IMG/VR virus record: IMGVR_UViG_2571042636_000001
Span: 1 to 25,417 of that record
Origin: a virus
Taxonomy: Duplodnaviria; Heunggongvirae; Uroviricota; Caudoviricetes
Length of the DNA: 25,417 nucleotides
Strand: one strand, 5' to 3'
Numbering within the stretch: position 1 is the first letter of the stretch; the number at the start of each line of letters is the position of its first letter. Below, piece by piece: positions 3,183 through 24,775 of the stretch. The notes beneath the pieces are model-generated. The model ran no database searches. It had not been told where the DNA came from and saw only the letters and a list, made by a program, of their open reading frames with translations. Position numbers and translations under genes: made by a program.

Positions 3183-3876
3183 GTAGTGTTTCCCTTAGTG
3201 ATGAGAGATTATCGCCGACGAACAGCATCACAGCTGTAAAAACCCATTCGGGGTGTGGGATGTTTTTTTGTATCAGCACTGCGGCCTGGCTAAGGGCTCC
3301 CTTGTGGCAAAAGCGCCACACCGGGCAAAATTTTTGCCGGAGTGCGGCCTGCTGATCAGCGATTTCCTGTAAGGCTTTATCTCTCGCATTCATGAACTGA
3401 CGCAGTGATGATGACAATGTTTCCGGTGATGTGACGGCAGGAGTGGCTGCCTGTGCAATGGTTGCCGCCAGCGACATGCTGCGAGTGGTCTGTGTCGATA
3501 GCATTATCGGTTCCGGAAGTGATGTTACCGGTCTGGCGGGGATTTGCATTCTGCTGATGGCCAGTGAAAACTGGCTGGAGATCATGCGGGACATTCGTCC
3601 CACCTCTGGTAACGGAAATGCGCCTGAAAATTGCCTGGCGAGTGATAAAAACTCGCCAGCAGACGGGGCGCAAAATAACAGCGCCACAACGTCTTTTTCT
3701 GTGTTTTCTGTCAGATAAGGTAAAAGCGCGGATACAGCATTATCCGGGCTGAGGTAACGCCCTGATGGTGTAATGTTTCCCGTATTTTCTGACCATGGGT
3801 GGAGGCAAACCATTGAACAGGTAATAGCTATGGGGGCTGGTCGCAAAACAGAGCGTATCCATGTTGAATTGTTCAT
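3154..3876 (-). CDS. Hypothetical protein, 240 aa, immediately downstream of the second tail fibre
   Basis: ATG at complement of 3874-3876, preceded by AGGAAG 6 nt upstream and 24 nt after the fibre-2 stop. The protein is Ser/Thr/Ala/Pro-rich and lacks the usual tail-fibre-assembly C-terminal domain. No family recognised. Confidence 0.45.
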   Translation of the reverse strand: MNNSTWIRSVLRPAPIAITCSMVCLHPWSENTGNITPSGRYLSPDNAVSALLPYLTENTEKDVVALLFCAPSAGEFLSLARQFSGAFPLPEVGRMSRMISSQFSLAISRMQIPARPVTSLPEPIMLSTQTTRSMSLAATIAQAATPAVTSPETLSSSLRQFMNARDKALQEIADQQAALRQKFCPVWRFCHKGALSQAAVLIQKNIPHPEWVFTAVMLFVGDNLSSLRETLHDPDDCPCA

Positions 3877-3900
3877 TTGTTCTTCCTGTGTGTCCGGATA

Positions 3901-5457
3901 TTACCCCATTCCGTTCTGGCGTAATGTTGTTCCCGCAAATATTTTTGCCACCACAATACAGGGAAGAGGTCCATTTTTTGCGCTGGCTGTCTCCTCCAGT
4001 GTCGATGTATCCAGTGCATAGTAAGGTGTGTCTGGCATCACCACCCGTATTCTTACTGTTATTGTGCTCGCGGTAGCCGAGACAGAACCGACAAAATACT
4101 GAGCAGGAATGTATTGTCGGTTCTGATTCATGTAGAGATAACGTGGTTCGAGCAGAGCAGAAACAGCGATACCCACTCCTCCAACAGAGGATTTCCTGAC
4201 AGGATTAGATACATCCAGTTCCATAGCATAAATACGTGAACCATCCGGCAGACTTTTAAATGAATCCAGGTTGCTGTTCAGGGTACTTACAGCCACCTTT
4301 GGAATGACCGGATGAGCGCCATCAACAAATAAGTCTCCGGATTGTTGTCTGGACAGTAAATTGGTCGGCGCAGAAGAAATTTCGGGACCCTCTGGTGAAG
4401 TGGTGTCAAGAGATTCCATCTGTTTGCGAACAAAGGCCACACTGGCAATTTCATTACCTGCTGCATCATCCGGCGGTGTTGGTGTAGTCGGCTTTCCTGT
4501 GAATTCCGGGCTTTCCAGAGGAGCCCTTGTTTCAATAAGTTTCCTGAGTGCAACCTCGTTTACTTTCAGGTTTTCCCAGCCAGTCAGCCAGCCATTACCA
4601 GTGGACCAGTAACGGTTGTAATAAATATTGCCATTAATGCCGTAGAAAATAATGGCCTTTGCTGTATGTAACGGAAGTGGTGGGTTATGGTTTGCTTCCA
4701 GCCAGCGGATACTTATCACCCCCTGAAAAACAATGCCGGGAAGTACACCGTTTGCCCCATCCACATAATATTCTCCTGGCTCCACATATCTTGCCCATGC
4801 CAGAAAATCAGCTTCAGATTTAAACCTGACGGCCTCCCCCGGAATAAACCTGTGACCAAAACCAAATGCACCAGGTGTCGCCAGACGACCTTCAGAACGG
4901 TCACGGATACCATTTTGAGGTTCCATTGTGGCCGCTTTTTTTAGCCCGAGATTATCGCGTGATTCCTGTTGTGCCTCTTTGCCCTCATCAGCAATTTCTG
5001 ACAGGCGATTAGGTGCTTTCAGTGCTGTTTTCAGTTCCGGAGTGATATCCACCTGCCAGCTCTGCGGAGGGGCCGTGACTTGTGCAGACTGAGCAATGCC
5101 GCTGTATATAATCGTGAAATTACGAATAAGTGACTCGCCTGTTACTTTTTGTCGAACAGGCGTTTTTATTACGCCGCATAGTGTTCCGCTGGCCTGATGG
5201 ATGAGACAAATCCAGTCATAACTGAATGCACAGTCATCAGGAACAACCGCGCTACACACAATATTGTTCGGGCTTAACAGGCCGTAGGTCAGTTCATTCA
5301 CAGCATATGTAATTTTTTCTTCCGGAACGGTATTATCTTCGTGCGTTGGTTCCCGCTCCATCAGGGCAAAAATAATAGTGTCAGGGCGTGCAGGTAAATT
5401 ACTGGCTGTGCATTCAGCAACCCACTTTTCAAATGCTTTCGTCAACAATGCGCTCAT
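3901..5457 (-). CDS. Second tail fibre protein (shares the N-terminal domain of the first fibre, different distal part), 518 aa
   Basis: The first ~150 aa align by eye with fibre 1 (LPARPDTIIFAL vs GKPARPDTFVFAY; TYGLLSPNN vs QYGLLSPNA; FSYDWICLIHQASGTLCGVIKTPVRQK vs FEYNWIGLLNEESGVLCMIAHTPRQQK; WQVDIT vs WQIDFT). It has an internal collar-like motif (TGKPTTPTPPDDAAGNEIASVAFV), and the C-terminal half is unrelated to fibre 1. Confidence 0.7.
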   Translation of the reverse strand: MSALLTKAFEKWVAECTASNLPARPDTIIFALMEREPTHEDNTVPEEKITYAVNELTYGLLSPNNIVCSAVVPDDCAFSYDWICLIHQASGTLCGVIKTPVRQKVTGESLIRNFTIIYSGIAQSAQVTAPPQSWQVDITPELKTALKAPNRLSEIADEGKEAQQESRDNLGLKKAATMEPQNGIRDRSEGRLATPGAFGFGHRFIPGEAVRFKSEADFLAWARYVEPGEYYVDGANGVLPGIVFQGVISIRWLEANHNPPLPLHTAKAIIFYGINGNIYYNRYWSTGNGWLTGWENLKVNEVALRKLIETRAPLESPEFTGKPTTPTPPDDAAGNEIASVAFVRKQMESLDTTSPEGPEISSAPTNLLSRQQSGDLFVDGAHPVIPKVAVSTLNSNLDSFKSLPDGSRIYAMELDVSNPVRKSSVGGVGIAVSALLEPRYLYMNQNRQYIPAQYFVGSVSATASTITVRIRVVMPDTPYYALDTSTLEETASAKNGPLPCIVVAKIFAGTTLRQNGMG

Positions 5458-9531: not shown

Positions 9532-9874
9532 CAAGAGATACCGTAAAAGTCAGGGGTTCAAAAAAATCTTCGGTGTGGGCGCTAATCAGCAGGCGACCAG
9601 AAAGCGGGGTTTCTTCTGTCACACTGACCGTGCCAGGTGTGATGCGCTCATCATCTTCAATCAGCAGTGTCATCTGCATCATGATGTCGGCACGAAGCGT
9701 CGGGCTTTTTTCAGCCAGCAGGCGCGTTGCCAGTCCGCTCTCAATGATGGCGTGCTGGCAGTCCTGGGCAATACTTTCTCTGTTGTTGCATAACACCGGC
9801 TCACTGGCGCTGTTCAGCGTGAGATTGCGGCCGGTGATGAGCAAATCAATGTAAAGCGGTTTATCAGTATGCAT
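9524..9874 (-). CDS. Putative small baseplate protein (gpW/gp25-like by size and position), 116 aa
   Basis: ATG at complement of 9872-9874 overlaps the tape-measure stop. At 116 aa and directly 5' of the baseplate-J gene, it is where a gpW-type wedge protein is expected. Sequence similarity is weak. Confidence 0.35.
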   Translation of the reverse strand: MHTDKPLYIDLLITGRNLTLNSASEPVLCNNRESIAQDCQHAIIESGLATRLLAEKSPTLRADIMMQMTLLIEDDERITPGTVSVTEETPLSGRLLISAHTEDFFEPLTFTVSLDD

Positions 9875-11960
9875 GTAGCTCCATCCACTCGTTGAGGCGG
9901 GCAGGGGATGGATCCTGCACATTGACGTTGACCACGCGACGGGAGTTGTCGATTGTGGTCTGGTTTTCGCTGTTGTTCTGCATTTCTGCCGCAATGCCAC
10001 CAGGCCCCGCACTGATGGCTTTACCGCCGGTTAATACGGAGCCTTCGCCACTTCCTGTGCTTTCTGATGTGCCGATGTTAACGCCGGGGATCATGTTGAG
10101 TTTGTCCACAATCCAGCCCCATGAATCACTGAATGACTGTTTCACCAGTTCCCAGAGGTTACTGAAAATGTTCAGGATGCCGCCCGCGAGATCCTTCAGG
10201 GCATCCAGTGGTGAATGCGTGGAAAAATAGTTAACCAGTGCATTCCAGCCGTCCTGGATTGTGTTCCATGCATTGCCGAACCATGTCCCCATACTGCCGA
10301 CCATTTCAGCCACCCACTGAAAGGCGGCGGTATCCATCAGCGCGGCTTTAATCTCATCCCAGCGGGTGATCAGGAAATAAATGCCCACCCCCAGCGCAGC
10401 CAGTGCCAGGATGATTAATGTGATGGGGCTGAAAAGTAACTGTGTTGCAATAGCAGCTCCGCTGGTGACTGCGGTGTAGATTTTCATTGCTATGCCGGCG
10501 GCACCCAGTGCAACAGAATAAAGCCAGAGTCCGGCGCGCTGTAATTTCAGCAGCGCCAGCTGAATTTTTGCTTTGACGTTGTATGTTCCCATGGCAATGG
10601 ACATGGCCAGATACAGCGCCCTGACCGTTCGGGCAACTACAGTGAATGCCCACATGGTAGCCGTCAGTGTGCGTTTCAGCAGAATGAGAATCTTCAGCGG
10701 CGCAACGGCTGCCAGCCAGACCAGCCGCAGTCCTGTCCAGACAAACTTCGCCACACCCACCATAATGTTGACAACAGCACCCACTGCGGCAATGCCCAGC
10801 AGGGCGGCAGACAGTAAACCAATGGCCCGTGTGATATTGGGATACAGACGTAACCAGGCAACAAAGGATTTACCGCCTTCGTTGCTTTTCTGGATAAACG
10901 GGTACAGAACAGGCAACAACTGCGTGCCAATTTCAATGCGAATGCCGTTAATAATTGCAGCGGCCTGTTCCCATGGATCGGCCATGGCTTGTGCCATTTC
11001 GACAGCCTTATCCATACCTTTAATATTGCCCAGCGTGGCGATATTCTTTTCAAGTCCGCCAATGTCCGCATTGAGTAATTTAATCATGGCCACAGCTTCA
11101 TCGGAGCCAAAGGCGCTTTTCAGCAAATCGGAATCAGCCACTTTTGACAGATCACCAAATTTGCCCCTGATAAGTTTCATGATCTCGACAACACTTTTCA
11201 TCGTGCCGTCTTTATTCACGAAATTAAGCCCCAGCTTTTTCTGGGCGCTGCCTACTGCGGCAAGAAATGCTTTGTACTTTGTCCCGGCCTCGCTGCCACT
11301 CATGGTGGCCTGCAGTTGTCCCAGCACAGCGAACTGTTCAGCCGCATCAATACCGGCCGCTTTTGCACTGGCACCCAGCGTGGTGAACGCCGCTGACATG
11401 TTATCGCCGGTTGTTTTAAACATTTGCACGGCGGTGGCGGTTTGCCCGGCGACCTGCTCCACCCATTTGCTTTTTCCCATGGCATCAGCCTGGTCTTTAA
11501 AGATGCCGTACATGGTGCCCATGTAGGCGGTAATGGTCTGGCTGCTGGATTTGGTTGCTGCTGCCACCGTTGCTGATGCGGTGGTGAAGCGGGACAGCTC
11601 ATCGTCAGTTAACCCGGCAATGGCTGACTGGATGTCGTAAGAAGCACGCACAAAATCCTGCGCAGCCCCGCCGTATTCCATAGTGAAATCAACGGCGGCG
11701 CGGCTGAGTTTACGCAATCCGGACTCTGCGACGCCCAGTGATTTCACCTCACCGAGCGCCCTGTCCATTTCAATGGCTGGCATCAGTGCCCCCTGAATGG
11801 CTGCACCTACTCCCCAGAGCGCAGCGCCTCCGGTAGCAATGTCCCGAAAGGCTCCCCGACTTGTTGCAGCAAATCCCTGAACCTGTCGCCCGGCTGCACG
11901 CAACGGCCTTGTCAGGCGGTCTGTCAGTTCAAGAAGTAATTCAAGGCGCTGTTGTGACAT
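9864..11960 (-). CDS. Tail tape measure protein, 698 aa
   Basis: Long ORF right after the chaperone frameshift pair. It is Ala/Gly-rich and helical in character with central hydrophobic segments, typical of tape measure proteins, and its ATG overlaps the stop of the frameshifted chaperone frame (TAATG). Confidence 0.8.
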   Translation of the reverse strand: MSQQRLELLLELTDRLTRPLRAAGRQVQGFAATSRGAFRDIATGGAALWGVGAAIQGALMPAIEMDRALGEVKSLGVAESGLRKLSRAAVDFTMEYGGAAQDFVRASYDIQSAIAGLTDDELSRFTTASATVAAATKSSSQTITAYMGTMYGIFKDQADAMGKSKWVEQVAGQTATAVQMFKTTGDNMSAAFTTLGASAKAAGIDAAEQFAVLGQLQATMSGSEAGTKYKAFLAAVGSAQKKLGLNFVNKDGTMKSVVEIMKLIRGKFGDLSKVADSDLLKSAFGSDEAVAMIKLLNADIGGLEKNIATLGNIKGMDKAVEMAQAMADPWEQAAAIINGIRIEIGTQLLPVLYPFIQKSNEGGKSFVAWLRLYPNITRAIGLLSAALLGIAAVGAVVNIMVGVAKFVWTGLRLVWLAAVAPLKILILLKRTLTATMWAFTVVARTVRALYLAMSIAMGTYNVKAKIQLALLKLQRAGLWLYSVALGAAGIAMKIYTAVTSGAAIATQLLFSPITLIILALAALGVGIYFLITRWDEIKAALMDTAAFQWVAEMVGSMGTWFGNAWNTIQDGWNALVNYFSTHSPLDALKDLAGGILNIFSNLWELVKQSFSDSWGWIVDKLNMIPGVNIGTSESTGSGEGSVLTGGKAISAGPGGIAAEMQNNSENQTTIDNSRRVVNVNVQDPSPARLNEWMELHAY

Positions 11961-12441
11961 TACGATCCCTTAAAAGCACGGATAATGCCGTTATTGACGG
12001 CGATGCTCATATTTTCCCAGTAGTGGTTATCCAGCCAGACGGCGGCAGCCAGTGACTGCGGCGAGTCATCCTCGCCGGGCAGCCAGTGGCGGCGCAGAAT
12101 CAGCATCCGGGTAAGGTCATTGCGATCAATGGCCCCCAGATGGCTTTTTATTTTTTTACGGTGATTTCCACTTCCGGCACAAACTCGTTATTCACGGCTG
12201 TTGCCAGGCTGGCCGGCATTCCTGGTTTTTCCAGCAACTGGTTCAGCAGATCGCGGTGCTCTTTAATCACGATACGGCGCAGGTAGTTTTTCAGCGGTGC
12301 AATTTTATTGTCCGGCATGAAGTCGTTCTGCAGGTCGTTGTAGTCTTTCACCGTCGGGATAAACGTCAGTTCATGCTCGCCGACCTGTAAAGTGATGGCG
12401 TTCTCTGCGGTGGTTTGGGGGTTTTTATCGTTCATCATCAT
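11960..12441 (-). CDS. Frameshift-extended tail assembly chaperone (gpE+E' type, about 159 aa) made by programmed -1 slippage
   Basis: The -1 frame entered at the heptamer A AAA AAA (complement of 12151-12157) stays open for 63 further codons (IKSHLGAIDRNDLTRMLILRRHWLPGEDDSPQSLAAAVWLDNHYWENMSIAVNNGIIRAFKGS) and stops at complement of 11960-11962, 1 nt overlapping the tape-measure ATG. Translated by hand from the sequence. Confidence 0.55.
12148..12441 (-). CDS. Tail assembly chaperone (P2 gpE-like), 97 aa
   Basis: ATG at complement of 12439-12441. Small acidic protein immediately 5' of the tape measure gene; it ends ...VEITVKK-stop on a slippery A7 run. Confidence 0.7.
   Translation of the reverse strand: MMMNDKNPQTTAENAITLQVGEHELTFIPTVKDYNDLQNDFMPDNKIAPLKNYLRRIVIKEHRDLLNQLLEKPGMPASLATAVNNEFVPEVEITVKK
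12151..12157 (-). other. Slippery heptamer A_AAA_AAA (programmed -1 ribosomal frameshift site)
   Basis: Run of 7 T on the plus strand (7 A in mRNA sense) in the last two sense codons of the chaperone ORF. The chaperone/tape-measure frameshift arrangement is conserved across tailed phages. Confidence 0.55.
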
Positions 12442-12505
12442 GTCCTGTTAATGTCAAGAATAAGAGGGCTTAATAAGCCTGCAGGAAGGCTTATTAAGCG
12501 TAAAA

Positions 12506-12847
12506 TCAGCGCACACCGTCGTGCTCAAGGCTGAAATGATTGCCATCTGCGCGGTTTTTAAAACGACCGCCCCATGAGCCGCCGAGGGATTCCCAGTACT
12601 CGCCCAGTTCGCGGTAAGCCTCTGTGCGGGTCTGGTATTCACCGTTAATAAACAGATTAAAATCCACCGCCAGTCGCTGGCAGTGCAGACTGTTGGTGAT
12701 GCCTGATCCCTTTTGTGCGTTGAGTTTTGCCTGCTCTGGCGTGCGGTACGCCTCACCGAACGTCAGGCCATAACCGCGCTGATGGGCAAACTGGATGAGT
12801 TTTCCGATCATGACGGTAAATTGTTGTTGCTTATCGGAGAGTTTCAT
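12506..12847 (-). CDS. Peptidase M15-family endolysin (L-alanyl-D-glutamate peptidase-like), 113 aa
   Basis: ATG at complement of 12845-12847 with an AAGGAG ribosome-binding site. It has the metal-ligand pattern H-x6-D (SLHCQRLAVDF) and a C-terminal DGNHFSLEH, characteristic of M15 cell-wall peptidases. Confidence 0.7.
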   Translation of the reverse strand: MKLSDKQQQFTVMIGKLIQFAHQRGYGLTFGEAYRTPEQAKLNAQKGSGITNSLHCQRLAVDFNLFINGEYQTRTEAYRELGEYWESLGGSWGGRFKNRADGNHFSLEHDGVR

Positions 12848-12956
12848 TTTTGCTCCTTACGGGGTTGTTGAGGTTTACGCAACCAGCGCCACAACGCCCG
12901 GATAATTTTCCAGACAATGGCAGCGGCTTTCTGATCCCTGCGGGACTGCATTGCGG

Positions 12957-13253
12957 TTACTCCTCTTTGTTCTCTTTTTCGTCCAGCTTCCGGCGCATGT
13001 GGCGCAGGAAGATTTCCACAATCTGGTAACCGGCAACGCCCATTGCGGTACCTGCGCCGGCAATGGCCAGTGGGTCAAGATTCGGGTAGCGAACCAGCAG
13101 GGCGGCGGCAGAAACACCCAGCGCGCTCCCCAGCAGGGTTCGGCCCACAAACAACCGCAACGTAATCGGTTCTGCGCCAGCCAGCACCCGACTTGCGGCA
13201 GCGATTCCGCCCAGAATGCCCAGGGTGATGATGGTGCGTTCATGCTCCTGCAT
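12957..13253 (-). CDS. Putative holin, 98 aa, three predicted transmembrane segments and a charged C-terminus
   Basis: ATG at complement of 13251-13253. Three hydrophobic stretches (IITLGILGGIAAASRVLAG, LRLFVGRTLLGSALGVSAAALLV, LAIAGAGTAMGVAGYQIVEIFL) are followed by the tail RHMRRKLDEKENKEE, and the gene lies just upstream of the M15 peptidase. Confidence 0.55.
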   Translation of the reverse strand: MQEHERTIITLGILGGIAAASRVLAGAEPITLRLFVGRTLLGSALGVSAAALLVRYPNLDPLAIAGAGTAMGVAGYQIVEIFLRHMRRKLDEKENKEE

Positions 13254-13256
13254 GGT

Positions 13257-13712
13257 TCACCCCATCAGCCCGCGCACGTCGTTCTCTGAGAGAACGGGCA
13301 CGCCGTTGATACGTACAAAGTCAGGGCTTGCCACCACGTACTTGATTTTGTGTGTGGTCAGATCCGCGCTCTCGGTGTCAATGCTTAACAGGTTCGAAAG
13401 CATCAGCTCACACCCGAAGACTTCAACGCGGATTTCTTCGGTGCCTGTGTTGGCGTAGAACACAAAATCCATTGATGGCAGGTCACGCCACGATCCCGCC
13501 TGAGCGGCTGCTTCCCCGAGCTGGTTAAAACTGCGGGTACTCATTTCGATTTCACCTTCGGCACTGACGGGACCGCGCAGTTTGCCGTCAGGGATGCCAC
13601 GGGTTTTGGCCACGGCGCTTTCGTCGCTGATATCCAGCGAAATGTTTTTTACGCGGATATCCGTTCCGCCAACATAAACATCAAAGGCCATGCCGTTAAT
13701 GCGGGTTGTCAT
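13257..13712 (-). CDS. Tail tube protein, 151 aa
   Basis: ATG at complement of 13710-13712 with a GGAGGAG ribosome-binding site, overlapping the sheath stop (ATGA). Size and position directly 3' of the sheath gene are canonical. Confidence 0.7.
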   Translation of the reverse strand: MTTRINGMAFDVYVGGTDIRVKNISLDISDESAVAKTRGIPDGKLRGPVSAEGEIEMSTRSFNQLGEAAAQAGSWRDLPSMDFVFYANTGTEEIRVEVFGCELMLSNLLSIDTESADLTTHKIKYVVASPDFVRINGVPVLSENDVRGLMG

Positions 13713-14857
13713 GCGTTCTCCTCCAGAGATTTGTCCAGCTGAATGCCCACTTTGATGGTTTTGGGGCAGGCATAAGGGCGGACAACAATGCTGATGCTGA
13801 CCGTCTTTTCGTCCTGCCAGGTGATGGCCACATCGCCTTTTTGTGGCGATTTCACTTCGCCCGGAAAGGTGACACCGTTAATCTGCGTGGATTTCGCCAT
13901 GGTACGCAGCGGGCGGGCAAACAGCGTTTCATGTGCGGCAATGCTGCCCGGTGTGCTGTTCAGTGAGCGATCGGCAATTTTGGGGATGGCCATCAGTCGT
14001 ACGCGGCGCGCCACCTTATCAGCAATGCGGACATGTTCGATGACGTTGTAGTCCCCGCCTTCCACCTCAAGTGTCACGCCGTCGGCCCAGTAAAGGCCGT
14101 CATAGTCGGCATACCACATGGGCACGCTGTAGCGGGCGGTTGCCAGCGCCTGCAGGGTGGCGAGATCAATTGCCTGTTCCGCGCTGTCCTTCGGGCGCTC
14201 TGTGGTTTTCAGTGCGGACAGCGCCCCGGTTGCCACACGTGCCGGACTGTCAGCAATGGTGACGGCGCTGTTACACAGGCGACCAGCAAGAACGCCCGGT
14301 TCAAATCCAAAAATCTCCGGAACCAGCATGACCTGCGGGGCTGCAATGCCTTTCTGTAGTGCGGTCAGTTCGGCAACGTATTCCGCCCAGGTTTTGCTGT
14401 TGTTGTTGGCGGCGATGGTCAGGATGAACCAGATGCGGCGCTGATATTTATTGATGATGGTCTGACGTAACGCCTGCATGGCGTTGATGTCATCCTTTGC
14501 GCTGACCGGCTCGGTGATCACCACGCCTTCAACTGAAACAGTTTCCTGAGCCGCTAGTATGGCGTTCTGCCATGCCTTGCAGGCTGGCGTTGCTTCTTTG
14601 CCTTTGCCGGCTTCCGGCAGAACGGCAACATAGAAAAAGGCATTCTGTCCGGCATTGGTCAGCGCAGACTGAAGGAAACTCTTCAGCGGGCTGGCGTTTG
14701 TTCCCAGTAGTTCATCCAGATCGCTGTTGGCATTAACCGGCAGAACCTTACCTTTGTTGTTTTGTGCATTGCCCACAAACAGCAGCGTATTTTCCACGCC
14801 GTCCGGCGAGCTACTGAACGTGTTGTACTGTTCAATCGTGACAGATGGCCAGGTCAT
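13709..14857 (-). CDS. Tail sheath protein, 382 aa
   Basis: ATG at complement of 14855-14857 with an AGGAG ribosome-binding site 7 nt upstream, chosen over the ORF-track start at 14941, which would overlap the upstream gene by 64 nt. Large protein directly 5' of the tube gene. Confidence 0.7.
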   Translation of the reverse strand: MTWPSVTIEQYNTFSSSPDGVENTLLFVGNAQNNKGKVLPVNANSDLDELLGTNASPLKSFLQSALTNAGQNAFFYVAVLPEAGKGKEATPACKAWQNAILAAQETVSVEGVVITEPVSAKDDINAMQALRQTIINKYQRRIWFILTIAANNNSKTWAEYVAELTALQKGIAAPQVMLVPEIFGFEPGVLAGRLCNSAVTIADSPARVATGALSALKTTERPKDSAEQAIDLATLQALATARYSVPMWYADYDGLYWADGVTLEVEGGDYNVIEHVRIADKVARRVRLMAIPKIADRSLNSTPGSIAAHETLFARPLRTMAKSTQINGVTFPGEVKSPQKGDVAITWQDEKTVSISIVVRPYACPKTIKVGIQLDKSLEENA

Positions 14858-14876
14858 AATTTGTCTCCTGATTTTG

Positions 14877-15590
14877 TTATCTCGTGCCGCCGTAATGCAG
14901 GCTGCGCAACTGCGCTTCCAGAATGCGGGCAAATTCAGCATCGCTGGCTCCCAGAAATGCGCGGGAGGGGATTTTTATTTCCCATACACGCTTTTTCTGC
15001 TCGCCTTTCAGAATGCTGATCACCAGCCCGGCCTGCGCCATACTCATGTTTTCCATAATCCATTTCAGGGAAGGCTTTCTGCGTCCCCTGCGTCCGGTTT
15101 TTTTGCTGACTGCGCCGACGGGGGCCCGAAAGCCCAGAGAAAGAAGGCGTTCTGCCTGCCGTCGTGTGGCGGGACGGGTACGCATGGCTTCGCTGTCCCG
15201 GCGTTTTGTGGCGCGGCCTTTGATGGTTGCGCCGTGCTGTTGCACCCACGCGACCGCCCCACCATGAGAGCCGGTGTTGTAATCCCCTTTTTTGAAGAAA
15301 AGACGGACACTTTTCCCGCTGCCGTCAACCCTGATGGCCAGCAGTTTCGGCAGTCCCAGCAGCATTTTGTTTTTATACCTGCCGCTGGCTTTATCCGGTC
15401 TTTTTCGTGGTGCCCAGGCTACCCCCTCAGGTGTTCGCTGTGCTTTCACATTGCGTCGTGCAGCTGGTATCAGGCCGTATTTCGCAATGCGAACCAGCAG
15501 CTTTCTGGCCTTTGCCGGCGGAAGTTCTGCCTCTCTGATGGCGCGACGAACCTGCCGGAGTTGTGACTCGTTAATCACGGGGCGCGTCAT
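14877..15590 (-). CDS. Tail completion / virion morphogenesis protein (P2 gpS-like) with a basic internal insert, 237 aa
   Basis: ATG at complement of 15588-15590 overlaps the upstream stop (ATGA). Motifs RTPEGVAWAPRKRP and FLGASDAEFARILE resemble the gpS family; an extra Arg/Lys-rich stretch (RATKRRDSEAMRTRPATRRQAERLL...KKTGRRGRRKPS) makes it longer than typical. Confidence 0.55.
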   Translation of the reverse strand: MTRPVINESQLRQVRRAIREAELPPAKARKLLVRIAKYGLIPAARRNVKAQRTPEGVAWAPRKRPDKASGRYKNKMLLGLPKLLAIRVDGSGKSVRLFFKKGDYNTGSHGGAVAWVQQHGATIKGRATKRRDSEAMRTRPATRRQAERLLSLGFRAPVGAVSKKTGRRGRRKPSLKWIMENMSMAQAGLVISILKGEQKKRVWEIKIPSRAFLGASDAEFARILEAQLRSLHYGGTR

Positions 15591-19535: not shown

Positions 19536-21323
19536 ATGGCTTATTCTGATGAAGTTATTGCCGCAGCAAAATCACTCTATCTAAAAAGGCACACCCCAAA
19601 AGAAATACAAAAGAAGCTCGGACTGAACAGCCCGCGAATTGTTTATTATTGGGCGACAAAGTTTGAGTGGTACACACAGCTTAATACTGAAGGCGTGGAG
19701 GATGTTATCGCCCGGCGTCTCGCTGTACTGGCGGAGCGTGACCATAAAACGCCGGAAGAACACGATGAACTCGATCGCCTGATTGGCCACCACGTCAAAC
19801 TGATGTCGGTCAGAAACAAGCACGCGGAGCGAATGGCTGAGATTGCACGAATGGGTGCGGACATTCCCCAGCCTGGTCGTTATGGAAAAGAAGAACGCGG
19901 AGAAAAAGGTGCAGGTAAGAAAGAGCGCCCCCGTAAAGCTAATGACGTTTCCGGGCTGACTGCTGAAAGTTTTGAGCCGTTTACCAAAAAACTGTTCGCT
20001 TATCAGTTGCACCTGCGTGAAAACAAATTCCGTCGTGTGCGCAACCTGCTTAAATCTCGCCAGATTGGGGCGACGTATTACTTCGCGTTTGAGGCGTTTG
20101 AAGATGCGGTATTAACCGGCGACACACAGATATTTTTATCGGCATCAAAACGTCAGGCCGAAGTGTTCCGCACCTATATCGTTAAGATTGCACAGACGGA
20201 ATTTGGCATTCCCATTAAAGGCAACCCGGTTAAGTTAAGTAATCTTGCTGAACTGTATTTTCTGGCGACCAACAGCAATACGGCGCAGTCAAACAGCGGC
20301 CACCTGTACATTGACGAATATCTGTGGATCCCCGCTTTTCGTCGCCTCAATGAAGTGGCGTCCGGTATGGCCACCCACTCGCACTGGCGCATTACTTACT
20401 TCTCCACGCCGTCATCCAAAACACACCAGGGCTACCCGTTCTGGTCTGGTGATGAATGGCGCAAAGGCGACCCGAAACGAAAAGGGGTTGAGTTCCCGTC
20501 CTTTGATGAACTGCGCGATGGCGGGCGCGAATGCCCGGATGGTCAGTGGCGCTATGTGGTGACAATGGAAGATGCCATTGCCGGCGGCTTTAACCTTGCC
20601 AACATTGACGAGCTGCGCGAGCGATATAACGAAACAGCATTCAATATGTTGTATATGTGCGTGTTTGTGGATGACAAAGAGAGCGTCTTTAAATTCGATG
20701 ACCTCGTGCGCTGTGGCGTTGATGTCAGTACGTGGGAGGATTTTCACCCGGAAGATGCCATGCCATTTGGAAACCGTGAAGTGTGGGGTGGCTTTGACCC
20801 TGCGCGCTCCGGCGATAACGCCACGTTTGTGGTGCTGGCACCGCCGCTGGTTGCGGTCGAACGATTCCGCGTGCTGGAAAAACACCACTGGCGCAGCATG
20901 TCATTCCAGTTTATGGCAGAGCGTATCCGCAGCATTAAGGCGCGCTATAACATGACGTTTATCGGCATTGATGTTACCGGGCTTGGCTATGGTGTCTTTG
21001 AGCTGGTTCAGGGATTTGCCCGCCGTGAAACAGTGGCCATTCATTACAGCGTTGAATCCAAAAACCGCCTGGTGATGAAGATGCTGGATCTGATTTACGC
21101 CAACCGTATTGAGTGGGATGAAGAAGCCACAGATATTCCGGCATCGTTCCTGGCCATTCGTCAGGAATCCACCAACAGTGGCAATAAAGTCACTTTCACC
21201 GCCGAACGTAGCGAAGAAACCGGGCACGCAGACATCTTCTTTGCCATTGCCCATGCCGCAAGTAATGAACCCCTGAACTATAAGCACAGGCGCAAATCAA
21301 CATGGATCCTGCCAGATGAGTAA
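19536..21323 (+). CDS. Terminase large (ATPase) subunit, P2 gpP-like, 595 aa
   Basis: ATG at 19536-19538; the size matches gpP and the gene is followed by, and overlaps, the portal gene, as in the P2 P-Q operon. Confidence 0.8.
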   Translation: MAYSDEVIAAAKSLYLKRHTPKEIQKKLGLNSPRIVYYWATKFEWYTQLNTEGVEDVIARRLAVLAERDHKTPEEHDELDRLIGHHVKLMSVRNKHAERMAEIARMGADIPQPGRYGKEERGEKGAGKKERPRKANDVSGLTAESFEPFTKKLFAYQLHLRENKFRRVRNLLKSRQIGATYYFAFEAFEDAVLTGDTQIFLSASKRQAEVFRTYIVKIAQTEFGIPIKGNPVKLSNLAELYFLATNSNTAQSNSGHLYIDEYLWIPAFRRLNEVASGMATHSHWRITYFSTPSSKTHQGYPFWSGDEWRKGDPKRKGVEFPSFDELRDGGRECPDGQWRYVVTMEDAIAGGFNLANIDELRERYNETAFNMLYMCVFVDDKESVFKFDDLVRCGVDVSTWEDFHPEDAMPFGNREVWGGFDPARSGDNATFVVLAPPLVAVERFRVLEKHHWRSMSFQFMAERIRSIKARYNMTFIGIDVTGLGYGVFELVQGFARRETVAIHYSVESKNRLVMKMLDLIYANRIEWDEEATDIPASFLAIRQESTNSGNKVTFTAERSEETGHADIFFAIAHAASNEPLNYKHRRKSTWILPDE

Positions 21324-23499: not shown

Positions 23500-23811
23500 T
23501 TATTCGGGAAATAACGCCCGGATATTCCCGGCCATCTGGCTGGTTATCTGTGTGGTTGGCGTTGGAGGTGTCGCAGGGCGTTCTGCTCTGGTTTGTGTCA
23601 CTGATAACGCTTCATCATCAGCCCATGCAGCCAGTCGGTAAGCCTCTGCCGGATTCATTTTCAGAAGTGCCAGCCCGGCCAGAAAAGCCACGCGTTGGCC
23701 GCTTTTGCGGGCTTCTGGTGTAAGGCTGTCCAGCCAGGCGCATGCTTCGCCTTCGTTCTTGACGGCGGCGGGCTTCAGATAGAAACTTATCCGTCTGGTT
23801 GGTGTCGTCAT
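23500..23811 (-). CDS. parR: ParR (StbB) centromere-binding adaptor of a type II partition system, 103 aa
   Basis: ATG at complement of 23809-23811, overlapping the end of parM. Sequence RRISFYLKPAAVKNEGEACAWLDSLTPEARKSGQRVAFLAGLALLKMNPAEAY aligns by eye with plasmid R1 ParR as recalled from memory. The longer 148-aa ORF in the track is an upstream run-on. Confidence 0.8.
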   Translation of the reverse strand: MTTPTRRISFYLKPAAVKNEGEACAWLDSLTPEARKSGQRVAFLAGLALLKMNPAEAYRLAAWADDEALSVTQTRAERPATPPTPTTQITSQMAGNIRALFPE

Positions 23812-23815
23812 TGGT

Positions 23816-24775
23816 TTACTCCTTGTCCATTGCGTACAGCCCATTAACCAGAGCAAACTGTGGCACCCCGTCCGCGATGAAAGTCGCATTAACTCCGCAG
23901 GCTTCGCGGATAGCGGGTGCCACAATCTCCGCCCCGCCACCGACAACCATCACCCGCCCGTAACCCGAAAAACCCGCCAGCGCGCGGATCACGCGTTGTT
24001 TCAGTGTCTCTTCCTTTTCACGAATAACCGCCATCAGGCTGTCGTAATGCGCGCCATTGTGGATGTGCTGGCGCAGCCAGGCTTCATCATGGCGATGTTC
24101 AATAATGGTATTAGCGATATGGTGACTGGTGCGCATACCGTTGGTGGCCATCACCGACAGCACGGCATCGGCCATCAGGGAAACGCCTACGTGTGGATCG
24201 CAAAACACCTGGCTGATACCTGCCAGTTGCCCCTGAACCTTTGCCACATCCAGCGTGGTTCCGCCTAAATCAACAATAAGCAGGGATTCAAACGGACTCA
24301 TATCAGCCAGTGCTTTAAAGCCAGCCGGAATGGATTCAGGCATAACCCGCACGTTACGGATAGTGAATGCCTCACCGTTCTGGTACTCCACCGGGCGCAT
24401 AACGTTCGCTTTTTTGCGGTTGATGTTGGCCATATCCGGCTGTGCGTTTGTATCGAAATACTCGCTCAGTGGCAGGGTGACAACCACATCCACCTCCTGT
24501 GGTGTGATGCCTGATTTGACCAGCGCGTGGTGAATGGCGATTACATTCACATCGCTGTACTGGTATTGCGTGTCGGTCGTCTGGATAAAGCGATCGCTGA
24601 CCGGATCAAAACCATAGCGCACGCCATCAAGCATGTAGTTCGCAGGCTGCGAGCCACCGAACGGCGCAGACCATTCCGACTTGAAGCTGTTCGGGCTGAT
24701 GGCGTTGCGGCATTCGCCGTTCTCAGTCCATGCCAGCTTGATGTTGGTGGAGCCGTCGTCGATACAAATTTTCAT
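23816..24775 (-). CDS. parM: ParM (StbA) actin-like segregation ATPase, 319 aa
   Basis: ATG at complement of 24773-24775 with an AAGGAAAA ribosome-binding site. The N-terminus MKICIDDGSTNIKLAW, and ISPNSFK, YSDVNVIAIHHAL, VMPESIPAG, LIVDLGGTTLD, FSGY..VMVVGGGAEI and LVNGLY match the actin-fold phosphate and adenosine motifs of plasmid R1 ParM. Confidence 0.9.
   Translation of the reverse strand: MKICIDDGSTNIKLAWTENGECRNAISPNSFKSEWSAPFGGSQPANYMLDGVRYGFDPVSDRFIQTTDTQYQYSDVNVIAIHHALVKSGITPQEVDVVVTLPLSEYFDTNAQPDMANINRKKANVMRPVEYQNGEAFTIRNVRVMPESIPAGFKALADMSPFESLLIVDLGGTTLDVAKVQGQLAGISQVFCDPHVGVSLMADAVLSVMATNGMRTSHHIANTIIEHRHDEAWLRQHIHNGAHYDSLMAVIREKEETLKQRVIRALAGFSGYGRVMVVGGGAEIVAPAIREACGVNATFIADGVPQFALVNGLYAMDKE

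Follow-up and report, generated by a model that had tools for sequence, protein, structure and literature searches.

How lysis of a Gram-negative host is completed from a cassette with a holin and an endolysin and no recognizable spanin is the question raised by a locus in a 25,417-nucleotide stretch of Caudoviricetes DNA (IMG/VR record IMGVR_UViG_2571042636_000001), referred to below as the window. The third step of Gram-negative lysis is carried out by lambda Rz/Rz1 and other two-component spanins. To our knowledge, the disruptin of phage phiKT is the only demonstrated alternative to spanins, and since this sole demonstrated family has almost no homologues, disruptins are hard to predict. 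[quoted passage not shown] The phiKT protein, gp28, is a 56-aa polypeptide of charge +7 with a predicted amphipathic helix; it is able to complement lambda Rz/Rz1 mutants, and its action resembles that of LL-37 (bioRxiv 10.1101/515445).

The window derives from a prophage of about 36 kb. Its head genes are of the P2 type, and the terminase and portal genes lie on the strand opposite to the tail and lysis genes, all of which are on the minus strand of the window. Read 5′ to 3′ on this strand, the tail completion genes R and S are followed by the sheath, the tube, a 98-aa ORF, a 35-aa ORF, a 113-aa ORF, a hairpin, the tail assembly chaperone, a DUF6890 gene, the tape measure and the baseplate and fibre genes. 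The sheath (DUF2586; 13709..14941, minus strand) was identified by PF10758 (E 3e-129) and PHROG 907 (tail sheath); its longest ORF is of 410 aa, and translation probably starts at an internal ATG (~14857) to give ~382 aa, as annotated in the related prophage L001. The 151-aa tube (13257..13712, minus) belongs to the HP1 Orf24 family (Phage_HP1_Orf24, PF10772, E 3e-50; PHROG 1182). On the other side of the lysis genes lie the 97-aa tail assembly chaperone (Phage_TAC_10, PF10963, E 3e-25; 12148..12441, minus), the 48-aa DUF6890 protein in the interval between chaperone and tape measure (PF21830, E 3.5e-24; 11960..12106, minus) and the 698-aa tail tape measure (PF10145; PHROG 28; 9864..11960, minus). 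The element is an HP1-type, P2-headed (Peduoviridae) prophage with a late lysis cassette among same-strand tail genes.

A prophage copy with 94.6% identity was found in E. coli A2, where raiA and pheL flank the insertion. Of 5426 complete E. coli genomes, 42 gave a match to the 1.9-kb lysis region, and in 41 of them at least 80% of the region was covered, at 90–95% identity. No isolated phage of the lineage was obtained by megablast of the 1.9 kb against 50,697 phage records. Among the deposited phages, the best protein matches were of 56% for the tube and 59.5% for the holin, and none with a tube of more than 60% identity was found. An Rfam search of the window returned no family.

The initial annotation had placed the holin and the M15 peptidase inside the tail gene block, which is borne out by the sheath and tube genes upstream and the chaperone, DUF6890 and tape measure genes downstream, and had rightly described a tail order unlike that of P2. 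It had also regarded the placement as unusual, and on this point the synteny comparison with annotated phages showed otherwise, as the order recovered is that of HP1. The annotation of Haemophilus phage HP1 gives the sheath (orf23), the tube (orf24), hol, lys, an Rz-like gene (orf25), the chaperone (orf26) and the tape measure (orf27), while the RefSeq records of Yersinia phage vB_YenM_324 and Escherichia phage ESSI2_ev015 give the tube, the holin, a 342-nt endolysin gene, an Rz-like spanin, a short overlapping ORF and the chaperone; the short overlapping ORF after Rz is annotated as an O-spanin in vB_YenM_324. Evidently, the tube–holin–endolysin–chaperone placement is the norm of the family (HP1-type Peduoviridae order) and was already known. 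With all three phages the window has in common the order from sheath through tube, holin, endolysin and chaperone to tape measure, as well as the tube and chaperone families. With the two enterobacterial phages it also has the holin family in common and an endolysin gene of equal length (342 nt) at the corresponding position, whereas HP1's own endolysin gene is larger (561 nt). The three phages carry an Rz-like i-spanin between endolysin and chaperone, whereas in the window the spanin pair is absent and a hairpin occupies the gap. Moreover, the holin abuts the endolysin in the comparison phages, whereas in the window the 35-aa ORF is inserted there.

The 98-aa ORF (12957..13253, minus) matches PF04550 (Phage_holin_3_2) with an E-value of 5.5e-28 and the holin family PHROG 175 with 1.3e-32. 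The PF04550 match, of 97.6 bits against a cut-off of 25, covers residues 1–85 on a profile of 86 positions and hence runs from end to end. A Kyte–Doolittle hydropathy scan revealed three hydrophobic stretches at approximately residues 7–26, 35–55 and 61–83, which are followed by a charged C-terminal tail, RHMRRKLDEKENKEE. The earlier reading of this protein as a holin-like membrane protein found support in both analyses, and by its hydropathy the protein is not soluble. A 122-aa ORF in an alternative frame of the holin gene (12875-13243) was set aside as a chance ORF, its lengths in relatives varying between 128, 86, 74 and 55 aa.

The outer coordinates that the initial annotation had given for the pair (12506-13253) are exact. 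The 113-aa ORF (12506..12847, minus), a small M15 peptidase in that annotation, is an endolysin of the M15/LAS zinc peptidase type by its matches to PF13539 (Peptidase_M15_4; E 4e-11, 43.8 bits against a cut-off of 25) and to the PHROG endolysin families 1768, 465 and 2649. The metal site was examined in 22 homologues of 75–96% identity, in all of which H55, D62, D101 and H104 are invariant. These residues form the pattern H-x6-D ... D-x2-H, the zinc site of LAS peptidases, and align with the motifs of Ply500; the family profile also matches the catalytic domain of this endolysin of Listeria phage A500 (2VO9). The AlphaFold2 model has a pLDDT of 75.8, and the top Foldseek matches were 2VO9, Serratia ChiX (5OPZ), the T5 endolysin (2MXZ) and LysB4 (6AKV), with probabilities of 0.85–1.0 but modest TM-scores of 0.45–0.52 and E-values of 3e-3 to 6e-2. 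The model and the PDB matches thus lend the LAS fold moderate support. The window protein resembles these four in its zinc-ligand pattern and predicted fold, and differs from them in being shorter, in having no cell-wall-binding domain and in an identity of only ~20%. All four are L-alanyl-D-glutamate peptidases, and by motif and model the window protein is probably one too. Inspection of its N-terminus by eye revealed no hydrophobic stretch usable as a signal or SAR segment, so the enzyme should need the holin to reach the wall.

Within the clade of close relatives described below, dN/dS is 0.01–0.11 for the holin and 0.04–0.09 for the M15 protein, and this strong purifying selection indicates that the cassette is in use. 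As judged from their sequences, the 98-aa and 113-aa proteins are a standard holin–endolysin pair, and we regard the identity of the cassette as practically settled. Of the cassette as it was first described, the holin and the M15 peptidase stand, while the 35-aa ORF at 12844-12951 had been overlooked.

The spanins of relatives occupy the adjoining position, next to the endolysin gene. A set of 80 loci with M15 relatives, one genome per species, was fetched. Of these, 53, spread over many Enterobacterales genera, have the tube, holin and M15 genes in this order, then about 490 bp, then the chaperone. The ~490 bp were read in detail in nine loci and were found to encode an Rz-like protein of 109–132 aa (PHROG 1152, E 2e-32), the N-terminus of which carries a membrane segment, together with an overlapping lipoprotein of ~90–130 aa with a clear lipobox (Rz1). 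A lipobox scan in all frames and from all starts recovered the o-spanin in 51 of the 53 spanin-type loci, plus the host BamD in L001. When applied to the window and to L001, a related prophage that is complete, the same scan left no credible candidate, in agreement with the initial annotation, which had seen no Rz/Rz1-like lipoprotein nearby. Neither did tblastn with the Rz and Rz1 proteins of the relatives give a match below E 0.2, and with regard to a unimolecular spanin of the T1 gp11 type, which combines a lipoprotein signal with a C-terminal transmembrane segment, the window offers no lipobox ORF whatsoever. In comparison with two-component spanins, a lipoprotein, a membrane-anchored periplasmic coiled-coil protein and any homologue are all lacking from the window. 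A second endolysin or lysis set elsewhere in the element was also looked for. PHROG scans of the remaining large ORFs of the window returned only baseplate, fibre, fibre-assembly and partition proteins, and no second set is listed in the annotation of L001.

Several lipobox-like strings were considered and rejected. One of them is read in the +1 frame of the 3′ end of the M15 gene (AIISALSTTVC in the window, STTAC in L001). The string arises as a side effect of the M15 codons for DGNHFSLEH, which are invariant, a similar reading occurs in spanin-bearing relatives that possess a separate true o-spanin, and the window string has V at −1 and no basic n-region. The other strings in the window either run antisense to known genes or fall outside their reading frames, and most of them have poor start codons. 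Their sites are in the tail fibre, tape measure, gpL and terminase genes, at the portal junction and at the right-hand end.

The gap between the M15 and chaperone genes is only 64 nt in the window. The spanin-less state is common to every locus with a holin at least 67% or a tube at least 63% identical to that of the window, and in these loci the gap measures 15–116 nt, with the exception of a Plesiomonas locus (L123) that carries an unrelated 87-aa ORF. The spanin-less clade so delimited comprises loci from E. coli, E. albertii, Citrobacter, Yersinia enterocolitica, Plesiomonas shigelloides and Edwardsiella ictaluri. We are confident that the absence of spanins is a true, derived deletion common to the whole clade rather than a failure of detection.

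The 35-aa ORF (12844..12951, minus), with the translation MQSRRDQKAAAIVWKIIRALWRWLRKPQQPRKEQK and a net charge of +9, occupies the 109 nt that separate the holin gene from the M15 gene. The sequence AAGAGGAG is located 8 nt upstream of its ATG, the ATG itself is 5 nt past the holin stop, and its stop codon overlaps the M15 start as ATGA. The ORF is missing from the NCBI pipeline annotation; as recorded by other gene callers, it is a hypothetical protein whose 61 member sequences fall into two clusters at 90% identity and occur on hundreds of contigs. Aligning ORFs with the same coupling on both sides were found in the same slot of diverged members of the clade, where they overlap or closely follow the holin stop. 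The most distant clade members have similarly placed small cationic ORFs, of which the one in Plesiomonas L123 shares the WRWL motif. Over both groups, the ORF measures 29 aa in Yersinia, 31 aa in L108, 34–36 aa in lineages of E. coli and Citrobacter, and 35 aa in two Plesiomonas lineages, while L105 and L107 have 41 aa, or 28 aa if an internal ATG is used.

The pattern of substitution is that of a coding sequence under constraint. All indels across the clade are in frame, and W14 is invariant in eight aligned variants of the E. coli, E. albertii and Citrobacter lineages. The dN/dS of the small ORF, 0.10–0.45, indicates a constraint weaker than that of its neighbours and is clearly below 1; between the window and L110, for example, the synonymous change was 13.7 of 21.3 sites and the non-synonymous change 19.3 of 83.7. 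Among 23 close relatives the predicted helix (through residue 24) was never truncated, while the C-terminal tail was shortened in four. Taken together, it is likely, with little doubt on our part, that the 35-aa ORF is a real selected gene.

The peptide has neither a signal sequence nor a transmembrane segment, and lies within the bounds of the disruptin class, which is defined by function (less than 80 aa, charge of at least +4). Basic residues recur every 3–4 positions through its sole hydrophobic stretch, so the peptide is expected to be amphipathic and not membrane-spanning. AlphaFold2 gave a single helix at residues 5–24, followed by a disordered, proline-containing basic tail. The best 18-residue hydrophobic moment of the window peptide is 0.78, a value reached by 0.5% of shuffles; for comparison, the moments of phiKT gp28 (charge +7), LL-37 (charge +6) and melittin are 0.68, 0.89 and 0.55, respectively. 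Throughout the clade, the small peptides have net charges of +5 to +10 and moments of 0.51–0.78. High charge by itself is common among the small ORFs of the window, where 39 of 130 have a charge of at least +5, but only 4 of these also reach a moment of 0.58.

Inspection of the phiKT cassette revealed that gp28 is encoded between the endolysin and the holin, the latter annotated as holin family 2-like. The resemblance of gp28 to the 35-aa peptide is therefore one of both properties and position: each is small, strongly cationic, devoid of a signal sequence and predicted to form an amphipathic helix, and each is encoded between the holin and endolysin genes of a genome that has neither a lipoprotein gene nor a spanin gene. 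They differ in length (56 against 35 aa) and show no sequence similarity, the window peptide being rich in Trp and Arg with a wide hydrophobic face. The order of the cassette also differs, being holin–peptide–endolysin in the window and endolysin–peptide–holin in phiKT, as does the phage, a temperate myovirus in the former case and a virulent podovirus in the latter. No alignment between the peptide and gp28 was obtained by blastp or tblastn, no PHROG family was found for the peptide, and its tblastn search of the phage collection gave no match. If the 35-aa peptide works like gp28, it would represent an independent family.

The distribution of the small gene was compared with that of the spanins. 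The end of the holin ORF falls between −14 and +17 nt from the M15 start in each of the 53 loci with spanins, which leaves no room for a small gene, while most lineages of the spanin-less clade possess it, the slot being filled in E. coli, E. albertii, Citrobacter, Yersinia and two Plesiomonas lineages. Five loci (L111 and L115–L118) have neither spanins nor the small gene, and in these the holin overlaps the M15 gene directly. The Edwardsiella ictaluri relatives (L124/L125), with a GH108 endolysin, likewise have no small gene and no spanin, and an independent spanin-less contig (L034) is also devoid of the small gene. It follows that the peptide is not indispensable wherever spanins are absent. 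In neighbour-joining trees of sheath, tube and chaperone combined, of the holin and of the M15 protein, the five loci without the small gene are nested among carriers and the basal branches are all carriers, from which it follows that the ancestor of the clade had the gene and that its absence from the five is a later loss. Nevertheless, the complementary distribution of small gene and spanins counts as one observation and not as many, as the loss of the spanins and the gain of the peptide may have been a single event.

A lysis scheme which would account for these observations is as follows. The holin would open the inner membrane at a set time and release the M15 peptidase, which would then cut the peptidoglycan. 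The cationic peptide, made together with the other lysis proteins, would bind membranes and weaken the outer membrane, and would in this manner supply the third step of lysis in place of the spanins, as gp28 does in phiKT. By this analogy the 35-aa peptide is a candidate outer-membrane disruptor (disruptin-like). We put this role forward tentatively, since the function of the peptide is predicted, some members of the clade have neither spanins nor peptide, and loss and gain may have been one event. With equal reserve, the 29–41-aa peptides may be viewed as a second, sequence-unrelated disruptin-type family that replaced Rz/Rz1 in one clade of HP1-type phages of Enterobacterales. For the whole chain of explanation, including the predicted outer-membrane step, we see slightly less than an even chance.

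Other explanations have to be weighed against this scheme. The peptide might belong to lysis and yet have its site of action at the inner membrane, where it would modulate or time the holin in the manner of an antiholin or as a depolarising trigger, in which case there would be no dedicated outer-membrane step. It is cytoplasmic with no signal sequence, its gene adjoins that of the holin and is translationally coupled with it, and the clade members that do without it fit an accessory function. Small factors acting at the level of the holin are also known, such as the 65-aa Lcc6 of the Shewanella phage LambdaSo (bioRxiv 10.1101/2024.01.23.576932). Lcc6 and the classical antiholins are, however, transmembrane proteins, whereas the 35-aa peptide is amphipathic and not membrane-spanning, and none of the 53 spanin-bearing relatives, with the same holin family and the same endolysin, has the peptide, which would be odd for a general holin regulator. 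We consider this role unlikely. To the same degree improbable in our estimate is a clade that is spanin-less with no replacement at all, the outer membrane yielding to shear, to low divalent cations or to slow failure, and the small ORF serving as a coupling spacer or in an unrelated role. Such a state would agree with the ~13–15% of phages of Gram-negative hosts that have no identifiable spanin, and with the several members of the clade that have neither spanins nor the small ORF. A mere spacer would nevertheless not be expected to show purifying selection, in-frame indels and a charge and amphipathicity that are kept despite low identity, and members without the small ORF couple the holin to the M15 gene directly, so that a spacer is not needed.

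Two other rivals concern the state of the cassette and the role of its M15 protein. The missing spanins could instead be a sign of prophage decay, the element being a defective remnant in which the cassette is no longer needed. The clade is known here solely from prophages and metagenome contigs, with the deposited phages remaining below the tube identity given above, and the large terminase of the E. coli A2 copy is frameshifted. Yet the spanin-less architecture has been kept in at least five genera and down to a tube identity of 63%, the dN/dS of the holin and M15 genes is 0.01–0.11, the head, tail and terminase ORFs of the window are full length, and the element occurs in 42 of the 5426 complete E. 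coli genomes. The long-term purifying selection on lysis and structural genes points to continued transmission as a phage, and decay appears to us quite improbable. Least probable of all, and hardly to be expected, is that the M15 protein is a virion-associated entry hydrolase instead of an endolysin. Its gene does lie inside the tail block, but it directly follows the holin gene, and in relatives Rz/Rz1 follow it to make a complete lysis cassette. Moreover, the protein consists of a 113-aa catalytic domain alone, with no structural module attached, and the GH108 endolysin in the same slot of the Edwardsiella relatives is typical of endolysin module swapping.

The value of the locus for the proposed replacement of spanins lies in its close relatives. 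Those with and those without spanins differ by a clean swap, in which Rz/Rz1 are gone and a small conserved cationic gene is present, and the clade members with neither spanin nor peptide are natural controls. By analogy with gp28, the 35-aa gene can be named as a definite and testable candidate for a second disruptin family, which, if the outer-membrane role is true, would be found in temperate phages present in 42 of 5426 complete E. coli genomes. The clade would then offer a natural before-and-after case of the substitution of a peptide for spanins within one phage family, and a Trp/Arg-rich membrane-active peptide of possible antimicrobial interest would be added. Should the disruptor reading prove false, the clade would still be useful for asking whether spanins are dispensable in nature.

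The 64-nt gap downstream of the M15 gene, where relatives have Rz/Rz1, contains a perfect 13-bp hairpin followed by CCTCTTATTCTT (12468..12499, minus), which was detected in a scan for terminator-like elements. The RNA fold has a calculated energy of −21.1 kcal/mol with a z-score of −3.9, and the hairpin is kept across the clade with compensatory changes in the stem. From its sequence, it looks like a terminator or attenuator in the former spanin slot.

The 64-nt gap separating the M15 endolysin gene (113 aa, 12506-12847, minus strand) from the tail assembly chaperone gene (12148-12441, minus strand) contains a hairpin with a perfect 13-bp stem at 12468-12499 (minus strand), for which RNA folding gave -21 kcal/mol and a z value of -3.9. 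On its 3' side lies CCTCTTATTCTT. The hairpin is kept throughout the clade of relatives without an Rz/Rz1 pair at this position, with compensatory stem changes (e.g., L108, L105 and L115), and occupies the same place as Rz/Rz1 of other relatives. It may act as a terminator or attenuator, with the sheath, tube and lysis genes on one side and those for chaperone and tape measure on the other.

Two members of the spanin-less clade, L124 and L125 from Edwardsiella ictaluri, carry a 183-aa GH108 + PG_binding_3 endolysin (3767-4318) in place of M15, which is a case of endolysin module swapping inside this clade. Neither a small cationic ORF nor a spanin was found in these two loci. They represent a natural control for the hypothesis that the 35-aa cationic ORF between holin and M15 (12844-12951, minus strand) replaces spanins as an outer-membrane disruptor. 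In another spanin-less relative, a Plesiomonas shigelloides contig (L123, WEKF01000002.1), an 87-aa acidic ORF was observed between M15 and the chaperone (4197-4460); it has no Pfam family, lipobox or membrane segment.

Between chaperone and tape measure, a conserved 48-aa DUF6890 ORF was located at 11960-12106 (minus strand), its 3' end adjoining the tape measure start. In the window it appears as an ORF by itself, with its own ATG, though it may correspond to the product that other tail chaperone genes make by frameshift extension. Elsewhere among the tail genes, the longest sheath ORF (410 aa, 13709-14941, minus strand) overlaps the 3' end of the gpS-like gene (14877-15590, minus strand) by 65 nt. 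Since a related annotation begins the sheath ~28 codons further downstream, the boundary initially assigned to this ORF is probably too long.

Two records among the holin homologues were called as fusions. P0182 (169 aa, NCBI, on a 6.4-Mb contig) joins the holin to an IS1 transposase domain (PF03400 + PF04550), suggesting that an IS element has inserted into this gene in a single genome. P0079 (ENA), one 198-aa product of holin and M15, is probably an artefact of assembly or gene calling. Three contigs (L011, L034 and L069) belong to records titled as Bacillota, Bacillales and Saccharimonadales MAGs. Their M15 gene is of this enterobacterial type, accompanied in L011 and L034 by the adjoining tail genes. 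Their assignment to Gram-positive or CPR metagenome bins is most likely due to binning contamination.

In the related E. coli A2 prophage (L001, 27597-29385) the annotation marks the large terminase gene as carrying a frameshift, but in the window (19536-21323) it is an intact ORF of 595 aa, so that integrity varies between individual copies of the prophage. Next to its replication genes, the prophage encodes a segregation ATPase of the ParM type together with a protein for partition or stability (23500-24775, minus strand; 31478-32756 in L001). These partition genes are plasmid-like and lie in a P2/HP1-type prophage found integrated between raiA and pheL.
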